Shown here: positions 1 through 9,828 of the stretch, one piece after another
Layout of the letters: each line of letters opens with the position of its first letter
How positions within the stretch are numbered: the stretch's first letter is position 1
Notes under the pieces: generated by a model
What the model was told of the DNA's origin: nothing
Databases searched by the model: none
Seen by the model: the letters and a program-made list of their open reading frames with translations, nothing else
Virus record (IMG/VR): IMGVR_UViG_2537562191_000038
Coordinates: 1 to 9,828 of that record
Direction: 5' to 3' (one strand)
Origin: a virus
Taxonomy: Duplodnaviria; Heunggongvirae; Uroviricota; Caudoviricetes
Length of the DNA: 9,828 nt
Program-made: the position numbers and the translations under genes

Positions 1-25
1 ATTCGTTAAATAATGGAGTGAGAGG

Positions 26-262
26 ATGCAGAACAATCCGAACAAATGTCGAACGCTATGGGTGCGGTTATATATTTATGCCGTCCTCTGTTTGATTGTG
101 TCACTGGTTCTGTATGTTTGGCTTTTGCCAAATATGATCTCATCTAACAGCACAATACTTGTATTGTTGGGAGTCCTTCTCGCGCTCATTTACCCGGCTT
201 TCGCAGTAGTCTTTTTTCGTGAAAAAACCAGGAAATTAATTAATGAAAAAAACGTTGATTAG
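26..262 (+). CDS. Small hydrophobic membrane protein (78 aa), probable partner of the downstream SPFH lipoprotein
   Basis: ORF with an upstream GGAG-type ribosome-binding site (taatGGAGtgagagg then ATG at 26). Two long hydrophobic segments suggest two transmembrane helices. The 3' end overlaps the next gene by 20 nt, suggesting co-translation. Confidence 0.5.
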   Translation: MQNNPNKCRTLWVRLYIYAVLCLIVSLVLYVWLLPNMISSNSTILVLLGVLLALIYPAFAVVFFREKTRKLINEKNVD

Positions 263-1070
263 TGCAGCGATTATTTTGGGTTCTTTATGTCTGACCGGAT
301 GCGATCGGGTAGAGCCAGGTAACGTAGGGATCAAAGTAAATAAGCTGGGGGATGATAAAGGTATCGGTGAAGTAGTTGGCGTTGGTCGCTACTGGACAGG
401 CTTGAATACTGAAGTTTATATCTTCCCGACCTTTAAGCAAATGAAGACATACGATGAGCCGTTCAGCTTCCAGATGAGCGACGGAACAACCATTGGTTAC
501 CACATCGGCGTAGCCTACAAGGTTGATCCAGCAAAAGTCACAACGGTATTTCAGACCTATCGCAAAGGTGTAGATGATATTACTGATACCGATCTACGCC
601 AGAAGGTTGCAGATGCTCTGAACCGATTAGCCAGCAAAATGACCACCGACAAATTTATCGACGGTGGCAAATCTGAATTGCTTGATGCAGCCCTTAAAGA
701 CATTCAGGAAGAAATGACGCCAATCGGCATTCAGGTGATGAGCCTCTCTTATGTAGGTAAGCCAGAATACCCGCCAACAGTTATTGACAGTATTAACGCC
801 AAAGTCACGGCAAACCAAAAAACCCTGCAACGCGAGCAAGAGGTCAAACAACGTGAAGCAGAGGCCAACATGCTGCGCGCGGAAGCTGCCGGACAGGCTG
901 ATGCTATTCGCACAAAAGCCCAGGCCGAAGCTGATGCCATTCGTTTACGTGGTGAAGCTCTGCGCCAGAACCCCGGTGTTATGGACTTGGAAGCGATCAA
1001 CAAATGGAACGGTACATTACCGCAGTATATGACCAGTAATACCGCTGTTCCGTTTGTTCCGGTGAAATAA
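243..1070 (+). CDS. SPFH/band-7 (stomatin/prohibitin-like) domain lipoprotein, 275 aa
   Basis: N-terminus MKKTLISAAIILGSLCLTGC is a signal peptide with a lipobox (LTGC). The central region has the SPFH-like pattern and the C-terminal part is Ala/Glu/Arg/Gln-rich and probably coiled-coil (QREQEVKQREAEANMLRAEAAGQADAIRTKAQAEADAIRLRGEA). AGGAA sits 8 nt upstream of the ATG. Family assignment is from recalled signatures, not a search. Confidence 0.7.
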   Translation: MKKTLISAAIILGSLCLTGCDRVEPGNVGIKVNKLGDDKGIGEVVGVGRYWTGLNTEVYIFPTFKQMKTYDEPFSFQMSDGTTIGYHIGVAYKVDPAKVTTVFQTYRKGVDDITDTDLRQKVADALNRLASKMTTDKFIDGGKSELLDAALKDIQEEMTPIGIQVMSLSYVGKPEYPPTVIDSINAKVTANQKTLQREQEVKQREAEANMLRAEAAGQADAIRTKAQAEADAIRLRGEALRQNPGVMDLEAINKWNGTLPQYMTSNTAVPFVPVK

Positions 1071-1097
1071 AAGCGTAAGCAAAATTGGCAGTAATCC

Positions 1098-1173
1098 GGC
1101 CCTTTAGCTCAGTGGTTAGAGCTGGCGACTCATAATCGCACGGTCACCGGTTCAAGTCCGGTAGGGGCCACCA
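1098..1173 (+). tRNA. tRNA with CAU anticodon, 76 nt with encoded CCA; most similar by memory to the enterobacterial tRNA-Ile2 (lysidine, ileX/ileY type) rather than elongator tRNA-Met
   Basis: Cloverleaf folded by hand: acceptor stem GGCCCTT/AGGGGCC (7 bp, one G-U), D-stem GCTC/GAGC, anticodon stem GGCGA/TCGCA with loop CTCATAA (anticodon CAT), T-stem ACCGG/CCGGT with loop TTCAAGT, discriminator A, CCA at 1171-1173. Ile2 versus Met identity is from recalled similarity to ileX and is not proven. Confidence 0.85.
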
Positions 1174-2714
1174 TATTTGGTTGTAACACGGCGTCTGGCA
1201 CATGCGTCGTTAGCGGTCTGGTGACGTTAAAGGGGTAACCTTTCCCCTAGCTCAGGCAACAAACCAGGTAGCCGGAATGTGCAAGCCCCGTTCATAGCGT
1301 CGGACTGCGGATTCACCATCCTGGCGATTCGGTGTGACAGCCGGGAAGAGTCCGGCGCATTAATCCTGATTTTCTGGTGATGACTCATATCGTTAGGAGT
1401 GATTTGAGTATGCCGATTATATCTGACATTCAGCACGCCTGGGTGGAGTGCTAATGTCTGCATCCCCTCTTGAATCCATGCCAAATTCCCTTAGTGCAGA
1501 ACAAGCTGTACTTGGTGGCTTAATGCTTGATAACTGCCGCTGGGATGAAGTTGCAGATCGTATAGTTGCTGATGATTTTTATACCAGTGCTCATCGTGAA
1601 ATTTTCAGTGAGATGGAGAGGTTATTAAGTCATGGCAAACCGATTGATTTGATAACACTTGCTGAAGCACTTGAACAGAACGGTAAATTAGAACGCGCCG
1701 GTGGTTTTGCGTACCTTGCGGAGATGTCAAAGAACACGCCCAGCGCGGCAAATATTTGTGCTTATGCGGATATCGTTCGTGAACGCGCGGTTGTTCGTGA
1801 AATGATTTCCGTCGCAAATGAAATAGCTGAAGCTGGATATGCGCAGGATGGCAGGGGCAGCAATGAATTGCTGGATATGGCCGAGCGCCGCGTTTTTGAA
1901 ATAGCTGAAAAACGACAAAAGAGCGGTAGTGGTCCAAAAGATATCGCCAGCATTCTCGATGCAACGGTATCTCGCATAGAAGAGTTGTTTCAGCGACCGC
2001 ATGATGGTGTAACGGGGCTTGATACCGGATTTACCGATCTCAATAAGAAGACGGCAGGACTTCAGGCGTCCGATCTCATTATTGTCGCCGCCCGCCCATC
2101 GATGGGGAAGACTACGTTTGCGATGAATCTCGTCGAAAATGCCGCAGTCCGTAACGATAAGCCCGTATTGGTTTTTAGCCTTGAGATGCCGAGCCACCAA
2201 CTGATGATGCGCTCACTGGCTTCTCTTGCACGCGTTGATCAGACTCGTATTCGAACAGGGCAACTTAACGACGAGGATTGGGCGCGGGTTTCTGGCGCAA
2301 TGGGGATTCTGTTGGACAAGCAGAATATTTTTATTGATGACTCAAGCGCCCTGACACCTACAGAGCTTCGTTCCCGCGCTCGTCGTGTTTATAAAGAAAA
2401 TGGTGGTTTGAGCATGATTATGATCGACTACCTGCAACTTATGCGCGTCCCCGAGCTGCAAGATAACCGAACGCTGGAAATTGCCGAGATTTCTCGCTCA
2501 CTGAAGGCTTTGGCGAAGGAATTACAAGTACCGGTGGTGGCATTGTCACAACTTAATCGATCGCTTGAACAGCGTGCGGACAAACGACCGGTAAATTCAG
2601 ATTTACGTGAATCAGGAGCAATTGAGCAGGACGCAGACCTGATCATGTTTCTGTATCGCGACGAAGTTTATCACCCGGATAGCGAAATGAAGGGCATTGC
2701 CGAGGTAATTATCG

Positions 2715-2717
2715 GAA
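2715..2717. repeat. 3-bp target-site duplication (GAA), left copy, flanking IS629 copy 1
   Basis: GAA lies directly outside both IS termini (2715-2717 and 4028-4030). Removing the IS and one GAA restores an uninterrupted DnaB reading frame. Confidence 0.75.
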
Positions 2718-2759
2718 TGAACCGCCCCGGGTTTCCTGGAGAGTGTTTTATCTGTGAAC

Positions 2760-3650
2760 TCAGGCTGCCAGATCATCGTTTCCGATGGAAGCATAATAAG
2801 CTTTTTCTGCTTCTGCCGGAGGAGTATGGCCCAGCCTTCCCAGCAATCGTCGATTGTTATACCAGTCCACCCACGTTAGTGTGGCCAGTTCCACTTCTGC
2901 ACGGTTTTTCCAGCTCTTACGGTGTATTACCTCCGCTTTGTAAAGACCATTGATGCTCTCAGCCATCGCGTTGTCATACGAGTCTCCTGTACTCCCTGTT
3001 GATGCCAGTAATCCGGCTTCTTTTAGTCGCTCCGTATAGGCCAGTGACACATACTGAGAGCCTTTATCGCTGTGATGGATGGTGCCAGACGGACGACGGG
3101 CCCACAACGCCTGCTCCAGCGCATCCAGCACGAATGTCGTTTCCATAGACGATGAGACCCGCCACCCCACGATGTATCCGGCAAACACATCAATGATAAA
3201 CGCCACATAGACGAAGCCCTGCCATGTGCTGACGTAAGTAAAATCAGCCACCCACAGCTGGTCAGGTCGTTCTGCCACGAACTGACGGTTTACGCGGTCG
3301 CCTGCGGCAACGGCTTTCCGGCTGATGGTCGTACGGACCTTTTTACCCCGGAGAACACCGGCAAGTCCCATAACCGCCATGAGACGTGCCACTGTACATC
3401 TGGCCACCCTGATTCCTTCCCGTAACAACTGACGCCAGACTTTACGCACACCGTACACCTGATGATTTTCATCGTATACGCGCTGTATCTCTCTCTTCAG
3501 CCAGTCGTCGTGCTGCGCACGGGCACTGCGTTTATCCGGATGATGTCGCTGTTGCTGACAATGGTAATACGTTGACGGGGCAATATGCAGTTCGCTGCAT
3601 ACCGGTCCGACCCCGTACTGCTCACGCAGCTTATCCAGCAGTGGCATCAT
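2760..3650 (-). CDS. IS629 OrfB (DDE integrase-core transposase), 296 aa from the MMPLLDKL start; the same frame is open upstream to an ATG at 3731 in this copy
   Basis: Translation contains a retroviral-integrase-like DDE core (WVADFTYV..., HHSDKGSQY..., ...[14 protein letters not shown]) and is identical to the partial OrfB of copy 2 over the shared portion. The 323-aa ORF in the track (2760-3731) includes a 27-codon upstream extension created by the two homopolymer differences. Confidence 0.85.
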   Translation of the reverse strand: MMPLLDKLREQYGVGPVCSELHIAPSTYYHCQQQRHHPDKRSARAQHDDWLKREIQRVYDENHQVYGVRKVWRQLLREGIRVARCTVARLMAVMGLAGVLRGKKVRTTISRKAVAAGDRVNRQFVAERPDQLWVADFTYVSTWQGFVYVAFIIDVFAGYIVGWRVSSSMETTFVLDALEQALWARRPSGTIHHSDKGSQYVSLAYTERLKEAGLLASTGSTGDSYDNAMAESINGLYKAEVIHRKSWKNRAEVELATLTWVDWYNNRRLLGRLGHTPPAEAEKAYYASIGNDDLAA

Positions 3651-3727
3651 TTTTCCAGAGGCGGTCGAACTCCGCCTTCGCAAAATAAGCGGAAGCCTGG
3701 CGAAGGATATCGTTACTGCGGCGCAGT

Positions 3728-3973
3728 TCACGATTTTTCACGTTCCAGCTCTTTCAGACGCTGACGTTCAGCGCTGGTGAGCCCACCATCACCGCCCCCG
3801 GTATCCCGCTCATGCTGGCGAACCCAGACACGCAGAGTCTCCGGCGTACAGCCAATCTTTGGGGCAATGGAACAAATTGCCGCCCACTGTGAGTCATATT
3901 CATCCTGACTTTCCAGAACCATACGAATCGCCCGCTGACGGACTTCGGGGGAAAAACGAGTATTTTTAGTCAT
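3728..3973 (-). CDS. IS629 OrfA (helix-turn-helix transposase subunit), shortened variant (81 aa instead of 108 aa in copy 2)
   Basis: Identical to copy-2 OrfA up to ...KELERE, then KS-stop. The plus-strand T-run at 3734-3738 has 5 T where copy 2 has 4 A (8995-8998), shifting the frame. Confidence 0.8.
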
Positions 3974-4000
3974 CCTGTTTACCTCTTTCTCAGGGAGTTT

Positions 4001-4027
4001 AGTCTCCAGGATTTCCGGGGCGGTTCA
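4001..4027. repeat. IS629 left terminal inverted repeat (copy 1)
   Basis: Reverse complement reads TGAACCGCCCCGGAAATCCTGGAGACT, matching the right end at 2718-2744 (TGAACCGCCCCGGGTTTCCTGGAGAGT) at about 22 of 27 positions. Confidence 0.8.
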
Positions 4028-4030
4028 GAA
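4028..4030. repeat. 3-bp target-site duplication (GAA), right copy, flanking IS629 copy 1
   Basis: See left copy at 2715-2717. Confidence 0.75.
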
Positions 4031-4130
4031 AGCAACGAAATGGCCCAATTGGCACGGTGAGATTGGCTTTTAACGGCCAATACTCACGGTTTGATAACTA
4101 TGCTGGTGCTGACTGGCAAGAGGATTATTA

Positions 4131-5129
4131 ATGCAATGGAATGAGGAAAAGCCGATGAACATCCTGATCATTGGGCGAAAATTTGAAGCTATCAGTGATG
4201 TGAAAACATATACGGAAATGTGGGCTTACAACCTGGCCTGCGCCTTTAGTGAGGCAGGGGTAACATTGCAATTCCATCGTCCATATTCCCCCGGCGTCGA
4301 AAGCCCGGAGGATTATGTTGAAGCTGTGTTGACCGCTGCGACCTCGTGTTCTGCGAAAGCCATTTTAGCGCCAGGATTGCGGTATTTTACTACGGTGCCC
4401 AGGGAAATAGGCGTGCAACTGCGTCGTCGATTCACTGGATGGGTAGCCCAGGTATACGACGGTTCTATGCTGGATTCGGCACCAGTCGATATTACTTTTA
4501 CTGTCCGCGATGATACCTGGCGGTACCTGGATAATCCCGGCAGGTTAGAGCGTCATAATCGCTTTAACAAACATGTTGGATGGGCAGCGAATCAGGATCT
4601 GTTCCATCTGGAAACCAAAACAGACGATGTTCTGCGTATTTTTGTAGACCACGCTGCATTTGATGTTAGTGGGTTTGATCACTCCTTAAGTATCCTTATG
4701 AACCTTCAGCGTCTGACCGTTCCGTATGAGGCCAGAACGTTGACCGATGACGGATTGATTACCATTGATCCGGGGAATATATCGGTAACCCCATACAGAC
4801 GGACGCCGGTACCAGCAACCGAATTTGCAGCTGAATTGCGTAAGAGTGACGTGTTTATCGTTACGCATCCCGAAAGCCTTGGATTAACTGTACTTGAGGC
4901 GGCAATGTGCGGGGCGTTGGTATTAACGCCTCCCGATTGTCTTCCGCCAGATCGCCTGGCTTTGGTGAACCATATGGTTATCAAGTCGCGGATTGATTGG
5001 GATGAGGTTATTGCTCGCGTTGATCGCGTGAAAAATGCTGAAAAGGTCCAGTGTCACACCTGGTCGGCAATTGCGGAAAAGATGCTTGAGACGTTTGTCA
5101 CGCAGAAACCGTCGCGCGGTAACGGATAA
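4131..5129 (+). CDS. Glycosyltransferase-like protein, GT-B fold with an EX7E motif (GT4-like), 332 aa, no confident substrate assignment
   Basis: C-terminal segment SDVFIVTHPESLGLTVLEAAMCGALVLTPP matches the retaining GT-B EX7E signature (E-SLGLTVL-E followed by A-x-G). The N-terminus MNILIIGRKF looks like the start of a Rossmann-type domain. ATG at 4131 overlaps the helicase stop (TAATG); an alternative start at ATG 4155 has a GAGGA site 7 nt upstream. No signal peptide or transmembrane segment is evident. Family call is from motif recognition only. Confidence 0.5.
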   Translation: MQWNEEKPMNILIIGRKFEAISDVKTYTEMWAYNLACAFSEAGVTLQFHRPYSPGVESPEDYVEAVLTAATSCSAKAILAPGLRYFTTVPREIGVQLRRRFTGWVAQVYDGSMLDSAPVDITFTVRDDTWRYLDNPGRLERHNRFNKHVGWAANQDLFHLETKTDDVLRIFVDHAAFDVSGFDHSLSILMNLQRLTVPYEARTLTDDGLITIDPGNISVTPYRRTPVPATEFAAELRKSDVFIVTHPESLGLTVLEAAMCGALVLTPPDCLPPDRLALVNHMVIKSRIDWDEVIARVDRVKNAEKVQCHTWSAIAEKMLETFVTQKPSRGNG

Positions 5130-5151
5130 AAAATTGAACCCGTCATAACAG

Positions 5152-5174
5152 AAAAGCCCGAACGCCGGGCTTTT
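5152..5174. terminator. Bidirectional rho-independent terminator between convergent genes
   Basis: AAAA-GCCCG-aacgc-CGGGC-TTTT: a 5-bp GC-rich stem with 5-nt loop, flanked by an A-run upstream and a T-run downstream. It lies between the stop of the plus-strand gene (5129) and the stop of the minus-strand gene (5176). Confidence 0.6.
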
Positions 5175-5175
5175 C

Positions 5176-8322
<3,147 letters not shown>

Positions 8323-8705
8323 TTATCCTTTCCGTTTACGGGCTTCGTTAATTTGTGTCTCAAGAATGCTTCGCGCCTGCGCAGTGGCAGCGGCCTTGTC
8401 CATTCCCTGACTCATGAAAAACTTTATGAGGTTGTTCGCCTGCGTTTGCAGGGCTTTTTTGAGAGCGTCGGCTTCAGCGCGAGCCTGGGCTTCCCTCACC
8501 CGCGATGCTTTTAGTTCGGCATTCTTCCTGTTTGCCGTGGTGCGAGCTTTTTTTAACAACCGGCGAACGTTGTCCGTGGCGCTATCTTTTGCGCGTAGTT
8601 TTTTGCCTAATGCATCCTGAGATTTCAGATACAGCTCATACTCACGCGCAGCTTTAGCCTGATCCGTCGTTGTTGTCCGGTTGCGCGCGAGCGATTTAGC
8701 CAGTT
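8323..8705 (-). pseudogene. 5'-truncated gene for a Lys/Ala/Arg-rich, probably coiled-coil protein (at least 126 C-terminal codons retained); N-terminal part separated or lost by the IS629 copy 2 insertion
   Basis: The reading frame is open on the minus strand from the IS boundary (8705) to the stop at 8323-8325, with no ATG in the first 48 codons (KLAKSLARNRTTTDQAKAAREYELYLKSQDALGKKLRAKDSATDNVRRLLKKARTTANRKNAELKASRVREAQARAEADALKKALQTQANNLIKFFMSQGMDKAAATAQARSILETQINEARKRKG). The 78-aa ORF in the track starts only at an internal TTG. Confidence 0.55.
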
Positions 8706-8759
8706 TGAACCGCCCCGGAAATCCTGGAGACTAAACTCCCTGAGAAAGAGGTAAACAGG

Positions 8760-9086
8760 ATGACTAAAAATACTCGTTTTTCCCCCGAAGTCCGTCAGCG
8801 GGCGATTCGTATGGTTCTGGAAAGTCAGGATGAATATGACTCACAGTGGGCGGCAATTTGTTCCATTGCCCCAAAGATTGGCTGTACGCCGGAGACTCTG
8901 CGTGTCTGGGTTCGCCAGCATGAGCGGGATACCGGGGGCGGTGATGGTGGGCTCACCAGCGCTGAACGTCAGCGTCTGAAAGAGCTGGAACGTGAAAATC
9001 GTGAACTGCGCCGCAGTAACGATATCCTTCGCCAGGCTTCCGCTTATTTTGCGAAGGCGGAGTTCGACCGCCTCTGGAAAAAATGA
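8760..9086 (+). CDS. IS629 OrfA, full length (108 aa)
   Basis: [22 protein letters not shown]...[34 protein letters not shown], with stop TGA at 9084-9086 inside the A6 run and ATGATG region typical of an IS3-family frameshift window. Confidence 0.9.
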
Positions 9087-9828
9087 TGCCACTGCTGGAT
9101 AAGCTGCGTGAGCAGTACGGGGTCGGACCGGTATGCAGCGAACTGCATATTGCCCCGTCAACGTATTACCATTGTCAGCAACAGCGACATCATCCGGATA
9201 AACGCAGTGCCCGTGCGCAGCACGACGACTGGCTGAAGAGAGAGATACAGCGCGTATACGATGAAAATCATCAGGTGTACGGTGTGCGTAAAGTCTGGCG
9301 TCAGTTGTTACGGGAAGGAATCAGGGTGGCCAGATGTACAGTGGCACGTCTCATGGCGGTTATGGGACTTGCCGGTGTTCTCCGGGGTAAAAAGGTCCGT
9401 ACGACCATCAGCCGGAAAGCCGTTGCCGCAGGCGACCGCGTAAACCGTCAGTTCGTGGCAGAACGACCTGACCAGCTGTGGGTGGCTGATTTTACTTACG
9501 TCAGCACATGGCAGGGCTTCGTCTATGTGGCGTTTATCATTGATGTGTTTGCCGGATACATCGTGGGGTGGCGGGTCTCATCGTCTATGGAAACGACATT
9601 CGTGCTGGATGCGCTGGAGCAGGCGTTGTGGGCCCGTCGTCCGTCTGGCACCATCCATCACAGCGATAAAGGCTCTCAGTATGTGTCACTGGCCTATACG
9701 GAGCGACTAAAAGAAGCCGGATTACTGGCATCAACAGGGAGTACAGGCGACTCGTATGACAACGCGATGGCTGAGAGCATCAATGGTCTTTACAAAGCGG
9801 AGGTAATACACCGTAAGAGCTGGAAAAA
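9083..9828 (+). CDS. IS629 OrfB transposase (DDE), 3'-partial at window end
   Basis: Starts ATGATG at 9083 in the -1 frame relative to OrfA. Translation [22 protein letters not shown]... is identical to copy-1 OrfB and is cut by the window edge within ...HRKSWKN. Confidence 0.85.

Follow-up and report, generated by a model that had tools for sequence, protein, structure and literature searches.

The 9,828-nucleotide stretch of viral DNA examined here (positions 1 to 9,828 of IMG/VR record IMGVR_UViG_2537562191_000038, hereafter 'the window') carries near its left end a transfer RNA (tRNA) gene with a CAU anticodon, a non-coding spacer and a gene for a DnaB-type helicase, all in the same orientation. 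Comparison with phage, plasmid and bacterial genomes indicated that the window is an internal segment of a P1-type plasmid prophage (Punavirus), drawn from the ban operon, in which the tRNA gene corresponds to trnI of phage P1 and the helicase gene to ban. Within the spacer the same comparisons delimited a segment, here termed module A, whose reading as a conserved folded RNA is supported by covariation and which appears to be undescribed.

Genes and ancestry of the trnI-ban region

The features on which the following account depends are these, in the numbering of the window:

1098-1173, + strand: tRNA gene trnI, anticodon CAU (ARAGORN, the sole tRNA found; Rfam tRNA model, 64.7 bits, E 1.4e-12)
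1185-1359, + strand: module A, conserved structured RNA (covariation; covariance model R1)
1360-1453, + strand: ban-specific 5' leader (homology with non-ban contexts ends at ~1356-1359)
1454-2717, + strand: ban (P1 DnaB analogue), first ~421 of 454 codons (Pfam DnaB and DnaB_C; P1 and pUTAK annotation)
1089-1097, + strand: right-hand mosaic joint CAGTAATCC, the first bases in common with P1, spanning the 9 nt before the tRNA gene (BLAST)
1-1088, + strand: exchangeable cargo cassette, made up of an open reading frame (ORF) of 78 amino acids (26-262) and an SPFH/Band_7 gene (243-1070) (limits of P1 homology; Pfam)

Megablast searches of complete E. coli genomes, of PLSDB and of a phage collection found the whole window to be 98-100% identical in nucleotide sequence to P1, RCS47 and plasmids of E. 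coli O111 and O26. The best matches were plasmids of ~93-110 kb from O111, O26 and O145 strains (98-100% identity), most of them predicted to be non-mobilizable, together with one chromosomal record (H7), and the phages RCS47, P1, P7 and SJ46 matched at 98-99% identity. With insertion sequence (IS) elements excluded, P1 and the window are 98.4% identical over 1089-8705 and syntenic across trnI-ban-dbn-5-6-24-7-25, an order on which the feature tables of P1 and of RefSeq agree; the tRNA-spacer-ban stretch is covered to at least 80% in at least 434 PLSDB plasmids and in 18 phage records. The P1 record (AF234172) gives, in order, dmt, the C1 operator Oban with the promoters P1ban and P2ban, a dicF-like region, tRNA-Asn and tRNA-Thr, plp and upl (on the opposite strand), tciA-tciB-tciC, trnI, ban and dbn, after which come the convergent tail genes 5, 6, 24, 7 and 25, and the RefSeq annotation of a matching plasmid (pUTAK) likewise places dnaB after a tRNA-Ile gene. 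Both trnI and ban lie inside the C1-repressed ban operon (Pban, dicF-like region, tRNA-Asn/(Tyr)/Thr, cargo slot, trnI, spacer, ban, dbn), whose Pban/Oban region is found ~2.9 kb upstream, beyond the window.

Set beside the ban operon of AF234172, the window has the same tRNA at 76 of 76 positions and the same order of ban, dbn and tail genes, with a spacer that is ~90% identical and differs by 6 nt in length. It departs from that operon in the content of the cargo slot (the 78-residue ORF and the SPFH gene, as against tciABC in P1), in the extra tRNA-Tyr gene that plasmids of its type carry upstream, and in the interruption of both ban and gene 25 by copies of IS1203. The additional tRNA can be seen in plasmid pUTAK-13-1, where genes for tRNA-Asn, -Tyr and -Thr follow the dicF-like region upstream of the window (locus L002, 1906-2152) and where P1 has only Asn and Thr; the tRNA set of the ban operon is variable in its own right. 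The dicF-like region of P1, for its part, ends in a strong intrinsic terminator with an 8-bp GC-rich stem and T6, ~160 nt past Pban (locus L001, 1931-1953), which lies upstream of all three tRNAs and of ban, so that the rest of the operon needs either read-through or internal promoters.

The tRNA itself is identical to P1 trnI (entered in the P1 record as 'tRNA-ile2 (CAT) gene; 89 pct identical to ileX') and matches ileX of E. coli K-12 at 68 of 76 positions (89.5%); four of the eight differences amount to two compensatory changes of T-stem pairs, and the anticodon stem-loop is identical. In its acceptor stem the 5' strand GGCCCUU pairs with AGGGGCC on the 3' side, with C4-G69 and C5-G68 present and position 6 now forming a U-G pair, and it is these two C-G pairs that Ikeuchi and colleagues reportedly described in 2005 as determinants for the lysidine synthetase TilS. 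A methionine identity was considered on account of the label given by ARAGORN, and was rejected: that label is merely a literal reading of CAT, the body of the molecule resembles ileX and not tRNA-Met or -fMet, and the PGAP label in every genome record is tRNA-Ile. The gene was accordingly assigned, from its nucleotide sequence, to the minor tRNA-Ile2 type (ileX/ileY), and its product is presumed to be modified to lysidine at C34 and to read AUA. Of the isoleucine codons in the window's eight phage ORFs, 22% are AUA (12.9 per 1000 codons), a share well above the usual E. coli level, and such use fits the standard codon-supply rationale for a phage-borne tRNA. A scan of the + strand between 900 and 1700 called no promoter and no terminator; because no promoter is detectable ahead of trnI, the tRNA is probably excised from the operon transcript. 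Host tRNA-processing enzymes would thereby release it from the polycistronic ban message, and it would then supply AUA decoding for phage genes that are rich in that codon.

The upstream edge of the tRNA gene coincides with a change in sequence ancestry. Homology with P1, P7 and SJ46 starts at 1089, and phages and plasmids of the RCS47 type are homologous from position 1; pairwise BLAST of a window-type plasmid against P1 located the two joints, the left one in intergenic DNA between upl and tciA and the right one at 1089, with window positions 1-1088 occupying the place of the 716-bp tciABC segment of P1. Other P1-like plasmids break at 1069 or precisely at the tRNA start, 1098. P1-like phage-plasmids have eight published hypervariable regions, of which the tciABC segment is one, and almost half of these phage-plasmids lack it (PMC9603915). 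The break at the 5' edge of the tRNA gene is the right end of a swappable cargo slot, the SPFH side being cargo and the tRNA and ban belonging to the backbone. Within the cargo, the SPFH ORF (243-1070) matches Pfam Band_7 with an E value of 9.7e-31, and the 78-residue ORF matches no Pfam family; with an overlap of 20 nt, the two run in the same direction as the ban operon and stand in place of the TerB-like tciABC of P1.

The original prediction, which correctly placed a tRNA(CAU) gene at 1098-1173, 27 nt past the SPFH gene (the gap 1071-1097 follows from ARAGORN and the ORF limits), and was right in its other coordinates too, had taken that gene for a boundary between core and accessory chromosomal DNA, with the helicase as the first gene of an island, and had remarked that no integrase stood beside it. 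The last remark is borne out by the ORFs of the window. The proposed boundary survives only in part: there is a real mosaic joint 9 nt upstream of the tRNA gene, but its polarity is reversed and it lies inside a phage genome, since both flanks are P1-type phage-plasmid DNA and the supposed core genes on the 5' side are a cargo cassette, beyond which lie upl and plp of P1. Among the three alternatives offered for the missing integrase, a tRNA borne by the element itself proved to be the right one (P1 trnI), to the exclusion of an integrase at the far end and of a remodelled junction, the spacer holding a conserved structured RNA instead. A search for a direct repeat of the tRNA 3' end, which had been suggested as a check, found its last 23 nt once in the window with 3 mismatches allowed, and a general repeat search turned up no relevant direct repeat elsewhere in the window; no tyrosine integrase was found among the window ORFs or in the annotated flanks of matching plasmids.

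A classical genomic island, targeted to a chromosomal tRNA gene, opening with the helicase and with its integrase either at the far end or lost, would be suggested by the succession of a tRNA gene, a mosaic break and phage or replication genes, with IS elements nearby, and the window does resemble tRNA-linked islands and prophages in that a tRNA gene adjoins a change in ancestry. That reading has a vanishingly small chance of being correct and is essentially excluded: P1-type DNA lies on both sides of the tRNA, with 93-110 kb plasmids and P1-family phages as best matches; the tRNA is that of P1, with 8 of its 76 positions different from chromosomal ileX/ileY; and the window has neither integrase nor att repeat, its joint standing 5' of a tRNA that is the element's own, whereas an integrative element would have entered at the 3' end. 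P1 lysogens are maintained as low-copy plasmids (PMC9603915; PMC8546580), the element is itself a plasmid, and because P1 is kept in this form no integrase or att site is expected beside trnI. The tRNA-ban junction is in itself the textbook arrangement of P1, and it, the missing integrase (which the lifestyle of P1 explains) and the variable slot are already known P1 biology.

A folded RNA in the spacer

The spacer between trnI and ban was found, as originally described, to be a non-coding stretch of 280 nt (1174-1453, the DnaB-type ORF starting at ATG 1454, which is the start annotated in identical plasmids) in which GGGG at 1232-1235 and CCCC at 1244-1247 pair in the local fold. It consists of two parts, the ~175-nt module A (~1185-1359) and the 94-nt ban-specific leader (1360-1453). 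The limits of the first part emerged from its occurrence elsewhere: sequence in common with SfV-type lambdoid phages begins at ~1175, and a sensitive search with 1060-1500 as the query recovered 1175-1353 from lambdoid phages that have neither the tRNA nor ban. Some P1- and D6-like plasmids retain the tRNA and this stretch and then diverge at ~1356-1359, the same point at which homology with non-ban contexts (lambdoid phages and D6-like plasmids) stops. Both ends of module A coincide with mosaic joints.

A structure with the following elements was put to the test on an alignment (A3) of 30 sequences spanning the groups that carry module A:

1189-1193/1205-1209, + strand: helix P1
1213-1214 and 1217-1221/1264-1268 and 1271-1272, + strand: helix P2
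1231-1248, + strand: GGGG/CCCC hairpin (AGGGG...CCCCU), the apical tip of helix P2 (local fold)
1308-1311/1319-1322, + strand: helix P3
1340-1344/1352-1356, + strand: helix P4
1198-1203/1277-1282, + strand: candidate pseudoknot PK1, invariant and so without covariation
1314-1317/1331-1334, + strand: candidate pseudoknot PK2, with one compensatory pair

On this alignment 96.8% of cells pair, as against 29-42% when the partners are slid by one to three columns, and 12 pairs are changed on both sides, two or three of them in each of helices P1, P2, P3 and P4; none of 500 shuffles reached the observed values. The compensatory pair of PK2 converts CACC/GGUG to AACC/GGUU; five sequences have this change, drawn from three or more unrelated contexts. 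Many G-U pairs are present, and on the + strand only, which identifies the folded strand as the one transcribed with the tRNA and ban. At the level of primary sequence, about 20 genera show no variation at 59 of the 163 model positions, and covariance model R1, built for the family, scores the window copy at 150 bits (E 1e-48). The energies of single-sequence folding were no better than those of shuffled sequences (z = -1.18 for the spacer and -0.94 for the P2 arm), so the case for a structure is made by covariation only.

Several other accounts of the spacer sequence were examined and set aside. Protein coding was rejected: every one of the six frames of the window copy is interrupted by stop codons, and lengths within the family range from 153 to 181 nt, out of register with one another. 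An alternative long-range pairing of the first stem, proposed by RNAalifold, showed one-sided changes only, whereas the local helix P1 hairpin has compensatory ones. The GGGG/CCCC hairpin is not a terminator, given that no U-tract follows it and the terminator scan makes no call; relatives have, in place of this apical tip of helix P2, hairpins that differ from it in sequence and length (A3 columns 67-110).

Rfam 15 contains no family that falls over module A or over the modules that follow it elsewhere (E<=1 in the window, E<=0.1 in seven related loci), the only matches in these sequences being to tRNA, ALIL, C4, isrK and, weakly, STnc100, and the P1 record bears no annotation in the trnI-ban spacer. 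No description of the RNA was found in the searchable literature, from which an earlier description may nonetheless have escaped notice.

Module A in other phages and its possible function

Module A was found in 82 phage records, comprising the P1 family, lambdoid phages of the SfV, Stx2c, cdtI, mEp460 and mEp390 types, epsilon15-like Uetakeviruses and phages of Klebsiella and Enterobacter, as well as in more than 120 IMG/VR contigs, and there is a single copy in each phage. Among the 24 species-representative genomes matched by its 19-nt invariant core, 22 contain it, from about 20 enterobacterial genera; apart from probable mis-binned metagenome-assembled genomes these are all Enterobacterales, and one match in Oscillospiraceae is due to chance. 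Of 5426 complete E. coli genomes, 2137 (39%) carry it, at 2346 chromosomal and 554 plasmid places, at none of which is any feature annotated over it. The K-12 prophage CPS-53, which carries yfdP and yfdQ, has no copy, the region being read as lost. As a separate observation, 33 nt of module A (1204-1236) are 100% identical to a sequence of E. coli 2012C-4502 annotated as belonging to clustered regularly interspaced short palindromic repeats (NZ_CP027440.1, 1868887-1868919), presumably a spacer gained from a phage or plasmid that carries module A.

In these other settings module A stands in the leaders of early operons. In the Stx2c phage PV98-693 the gene for a cI-type repressor ends in an intrinsic terminator, which is followed by a promoter (TTGACA-16-CATAAT, 11 of 12 matches) overlapped by the perfect palindrome GATACATAATGTATC, and module A begins about 30-55 nt later; PhiR55_1 has the same layout with TTGC-N7-GCAA operators, and in Uetakeviruses a promoter with a TTACCTTTTAGGTAA operator is followed by module A and then by small co-oriented ORFs. 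In mEp460 and Stx2a_WGPS2 module A heads an untranslated leader of 0.7-0.8 kb, after which come yfdP, yfdQ, a 5'-nucleotidase gene, ea22 and finally xis and int, with no N gene present. Lambdoid phages without N have module A within the first ~30-60 nt past a PL-type promoter, ahead of co-oriented early genes. Counted over unique contexts outside the tRNA-linked ones, a promoter match (strict) within 110 nt upstream was present in 29 of 88, as against 4 of 88 control windows. In 72 of 81 contexts the longest ORF in the next 2.5 kb was co-oriented with module A.

Outside the ban-linked P1 type, helix P4 is followed by a further long hairpin, P5, in which ...CAACGAUGAGAGCA... is paired with ...UGCUCUCAGCGUUGUGG and which occurs in covarying versions (GAGAGUA/UACUCUC, GAGAGCGCAC/GUGCGCUC, GAUGGCU/AGUCAUC and AGGAAAAGGCG/CGCCGUUUCC). 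What follows P5 is of two kinds. In phage SPN1S and in contig L071 of IMG/VR, the closing GUUGUGG of P5 already contains the start of a tRNA-Arg(UCU) gene, and other leaders have a large domain with a closing helix of GUUGUGGUG...CACCACAAC; further 3' there is a small hairpin and then, in 9 of 19 representative leaders as judged by eye, a terminator-like hairpin with a U-tract. Terminator counts downstream of module A are uninformative, the loops of this conserved terminator-like hairpin exceeding the length that the rule allows. Three loci with 3' modules of the P5 type are located as follows:

L126, 3096-3302: P5-type 3' modules
L071, 7701-7850: P5-type 3' modules
L160, 9230-9660, - strand: P5-type 3' modules

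These parts can be exchanged separately. D6-like plasmids keep the tRNA, module A and P5 before passing into other genes, and phage ST64B keeps the 3' modules behind a different 5' domain in place of module A, with two P5-like hairpins flanking a terminator-like hairpin. The early leaders are mosaics of RNA modules, and the window holds only the 5' domain of a longer leader.

Module A might be a passive passenger in P1, either a recombination relic of a longer lambdoid-type leader that was cut off when ban was joined to it, or a compact 5' structure that shields the ban message from 5'-end-dependent decay once the tRNA has been excised. The P1-type copy does lack P5 and everything beyond it, D6-like plasmids retain P5 along with the tRNA and module A but then have other genes, and the ends of the module are mosaic joints on both sides. 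Set against this, helix P3 reads GGA/UCC in one lineage and GGG/CCC in another within the P1-like elements themselves, the hairpin between PK1 and helix P3 has in those elements been swapped for different sequences that still pair, and two pseudoknots with long invariant loops far exceed what a protective hairpin needs; a passive role is on balance unlikely.

A second possibility is that module A is, or forms part of, a stable non-coding RNA that acts in trans, for example as a decoy, an anti-defence RNA or a regulator produced soon after induction, with ends made by tRNA-processing enzymes. Module A stands beside a tRNA gene in contexts that are independent of one another: P1- and D6-like elements have trnI 2-12 nt upstream of it, the tRNA-Arg(UCU) of SPN1S and L071 begins within the GUUGUGG of P5, and other leaders have the GUUGUGGUG...CACCACAAC domain at that place. 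Its sequence conservation is very high, and the terminator-like hairpin and U-tract noted by eye in 9 of 19 leaders close the non-coding stretch. The window, however, has no downstream tRNA or terminator that would set a 3' end, no complementarity to a target was found (no search aimed at it was made), and co-orientation with the downstream genes fits a role in cis at least equally well, so that a trans-acting RNA, too, must be considered improbable.

Module A could also be a sensor resembling a riboswitch, that is, a conserved, pseudoknotted aptamer that controls P5 and the terminator in lambdoid phages and the ban leader and ribosome-binding site in P1. Such a reading would accommodate the 59 of 163 positions that are invariant over about 20 genera in a multi-helix core with two pseudoknots, the constant location in 5' leaders before varied genes, and the persistence of an intact domain while the sequence past helix P4 is exchanged. 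The downstream genes, however, are heterogeneous and point to no particular ligand, no terminator or Shine-Dalgarno sequence was seen to offer an alternative pairing, and Rfam gave no match to a known riboswitch class; a sensor of this kind is considered less likely still.

A further comparison is with put RNA. The putL and putR elements of phage HK022 and the putL-like element of HK639 are cis-acting RNAs that bind the beta' zinc-binding domain of RNA polymerase, and their functional residues include U28 in a CAUG bulge and G35 at the junction of stems I and II (PMC9378689). Module A takes the place of putL in those lambdoid phages that lack N, past a PL-type promoter, downstream of cI and before the early-left genes. 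Inspection by eye showed that the base of put stem I, in HK022 and HK639 alike, is matched by the first hairpin of module A, CGGCG...CAUGCGUCG, including the CAUG bulge through which put contacts the beta' zinc-binding domain. CAUG-CGUCG is present and nearly invariant in module A, the base after CGUCG being U, C or A. The two differ in scale and setting: module A has 165-180 nt, with four helices and two candidate pseudoknots, where put has ~70 nt and two stems, and it is found as a single copy which in P1 follows a tRNA and not a promoter. No membership of module A in the put family could be detected: there is no covariance-model match, and the architecture differs.

The picture as a whole, of a P1-like prophage with trnI, ban and a cargo slot, and with module A as a structured RNA domain in the spacer, is considered probable. 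Its mechanism can be proposed with much less assurance. The favoured suggestion, a tentative one that falls well short of an even chance, is that module A acts in cis on the transcribing RNA polymerase, as put RNA does; a role in cis is preferred because the untranslated stretch is exposed to Rho and terminators and because of the putL position in phages without N. After excision of the tRNA, module A would become the new 5' region of the ban-dbn message, and it would keep elongation going through an untranslated leader prone to Rho and to terminators, in a manner like that of HK022 put without belonging to the put family. By extension, and with similar reserve, module A may be the founding example of a new class of phage leader RNA that loads onto or reprograms RNA polymerase, or senses a signal, at the start of early operons. 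It would then provide the early antitermination device that the many lambdoid phages lacking N (SfV, Stx2c and WGPS2 types) otherwise seem to be missing, and P1 would have recruited it behind trnI to drive ban.

Several observations weigh against a polymerase-directed function: (i) model R1 gave no match to HK022 putL or putR or to the annotated HK639 putL-like RNA (E<=10, filters off), and the residue equivalent to the essential G35 of put is not conserved in module A; (ii) in the window module A follows a tRNA inside an operon, not a promoter, and as it lies downstream of the dicF-region terminator of P1 it cannot help polymerase past that site; and (iii) the window copy is without the 3' modules (P5, tRNA or tRNA-like domain, and terminator-like hairpin), and since ST64B has those modules without module A, an antitermination signal could lie in them instead.

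The nut sites of lambda, which serve the N protein, and the boxA of rrn operons likewise are RNA signals in the leaders of early operons, and in some members the 3' strand of P5, which lies outside the window, reads UGCUCUUU or UGCUCUUA, as boxA-like words. The resemblance has its limits: N is absent from the phages with module A concerned, the boxA-like words vary together with their helix partners instead of being kept as sequence, and the window copy has no P5.

What gives the element its interest is where it occurs: without annotation, in some 39% of the complete genomes of E. coli, in resistance-spreading plasmids of the P1 family and in Shiga-toxin (Stx2c and Stx2a) phages, in which lambdoid phages it stands where lambda has nutL-N and HK022 has putL. 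Together with the P5-type hairpins that follow it, module A offers a concrete candidate that can be mutated. Should it control early-left transcription, including that of xis and int, it would bear on prophage induction and on the biology of toxin phages.

The ban leader, ban and the insertion elements

The 94-nt leader that joins module A to ban contains a ban Shine-Dalgarno sequence, GGAG, at 1444-1447. It also contains a possible upstream ORF of 14 codons (1410-1454, MPIISDIQHAWVEC), with AGGAG 10 nt upstream, whose TAA stop overlaps the ATG of ban (TAATG) and among whose codons is AUA, the one that the tRNA encoded just before it is presumed to read; ban-type relatives of P1 are near-identical over 1410-1454, and this ORF is accordingly without comparative support.

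Two insertion elements interrupt the phage genes:

2718-4027, - strand: complete 1310-bp IS3 element of the IS1203/IS629 type, with a GAA target duplication at 2715-2717/4028-4030
8706-9828, + strand: second IS1203 copy, running off the window end, 99.7% identical to the first and in the opposite orientation

The first splits ban, the last ~100 nt of which resume past 4030; the ban ORF reads into the element as far as 2953, so Ban is without its native C-terminus. An ALIL frameshift pseudoknot lies within this copy at 3576-3691. The second copy sits where gene 25 (tail) of P1 continues, and because that gene is interrupted the prophage is probably defective. Being inverted relative to each other, the two copies could invert the 4.7-kb dbn-tail segment between them.

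Two further RNA matches were noted in related loci. In a D6-like plasmid, sequence upstream of trnI matches STnc100 weakly (locus L005, 702-822), and matches to C4 antisense RNA and isrK lie near the Rha and antirepressor genes of phage PhiR55_1 (locus L003, 720-908).

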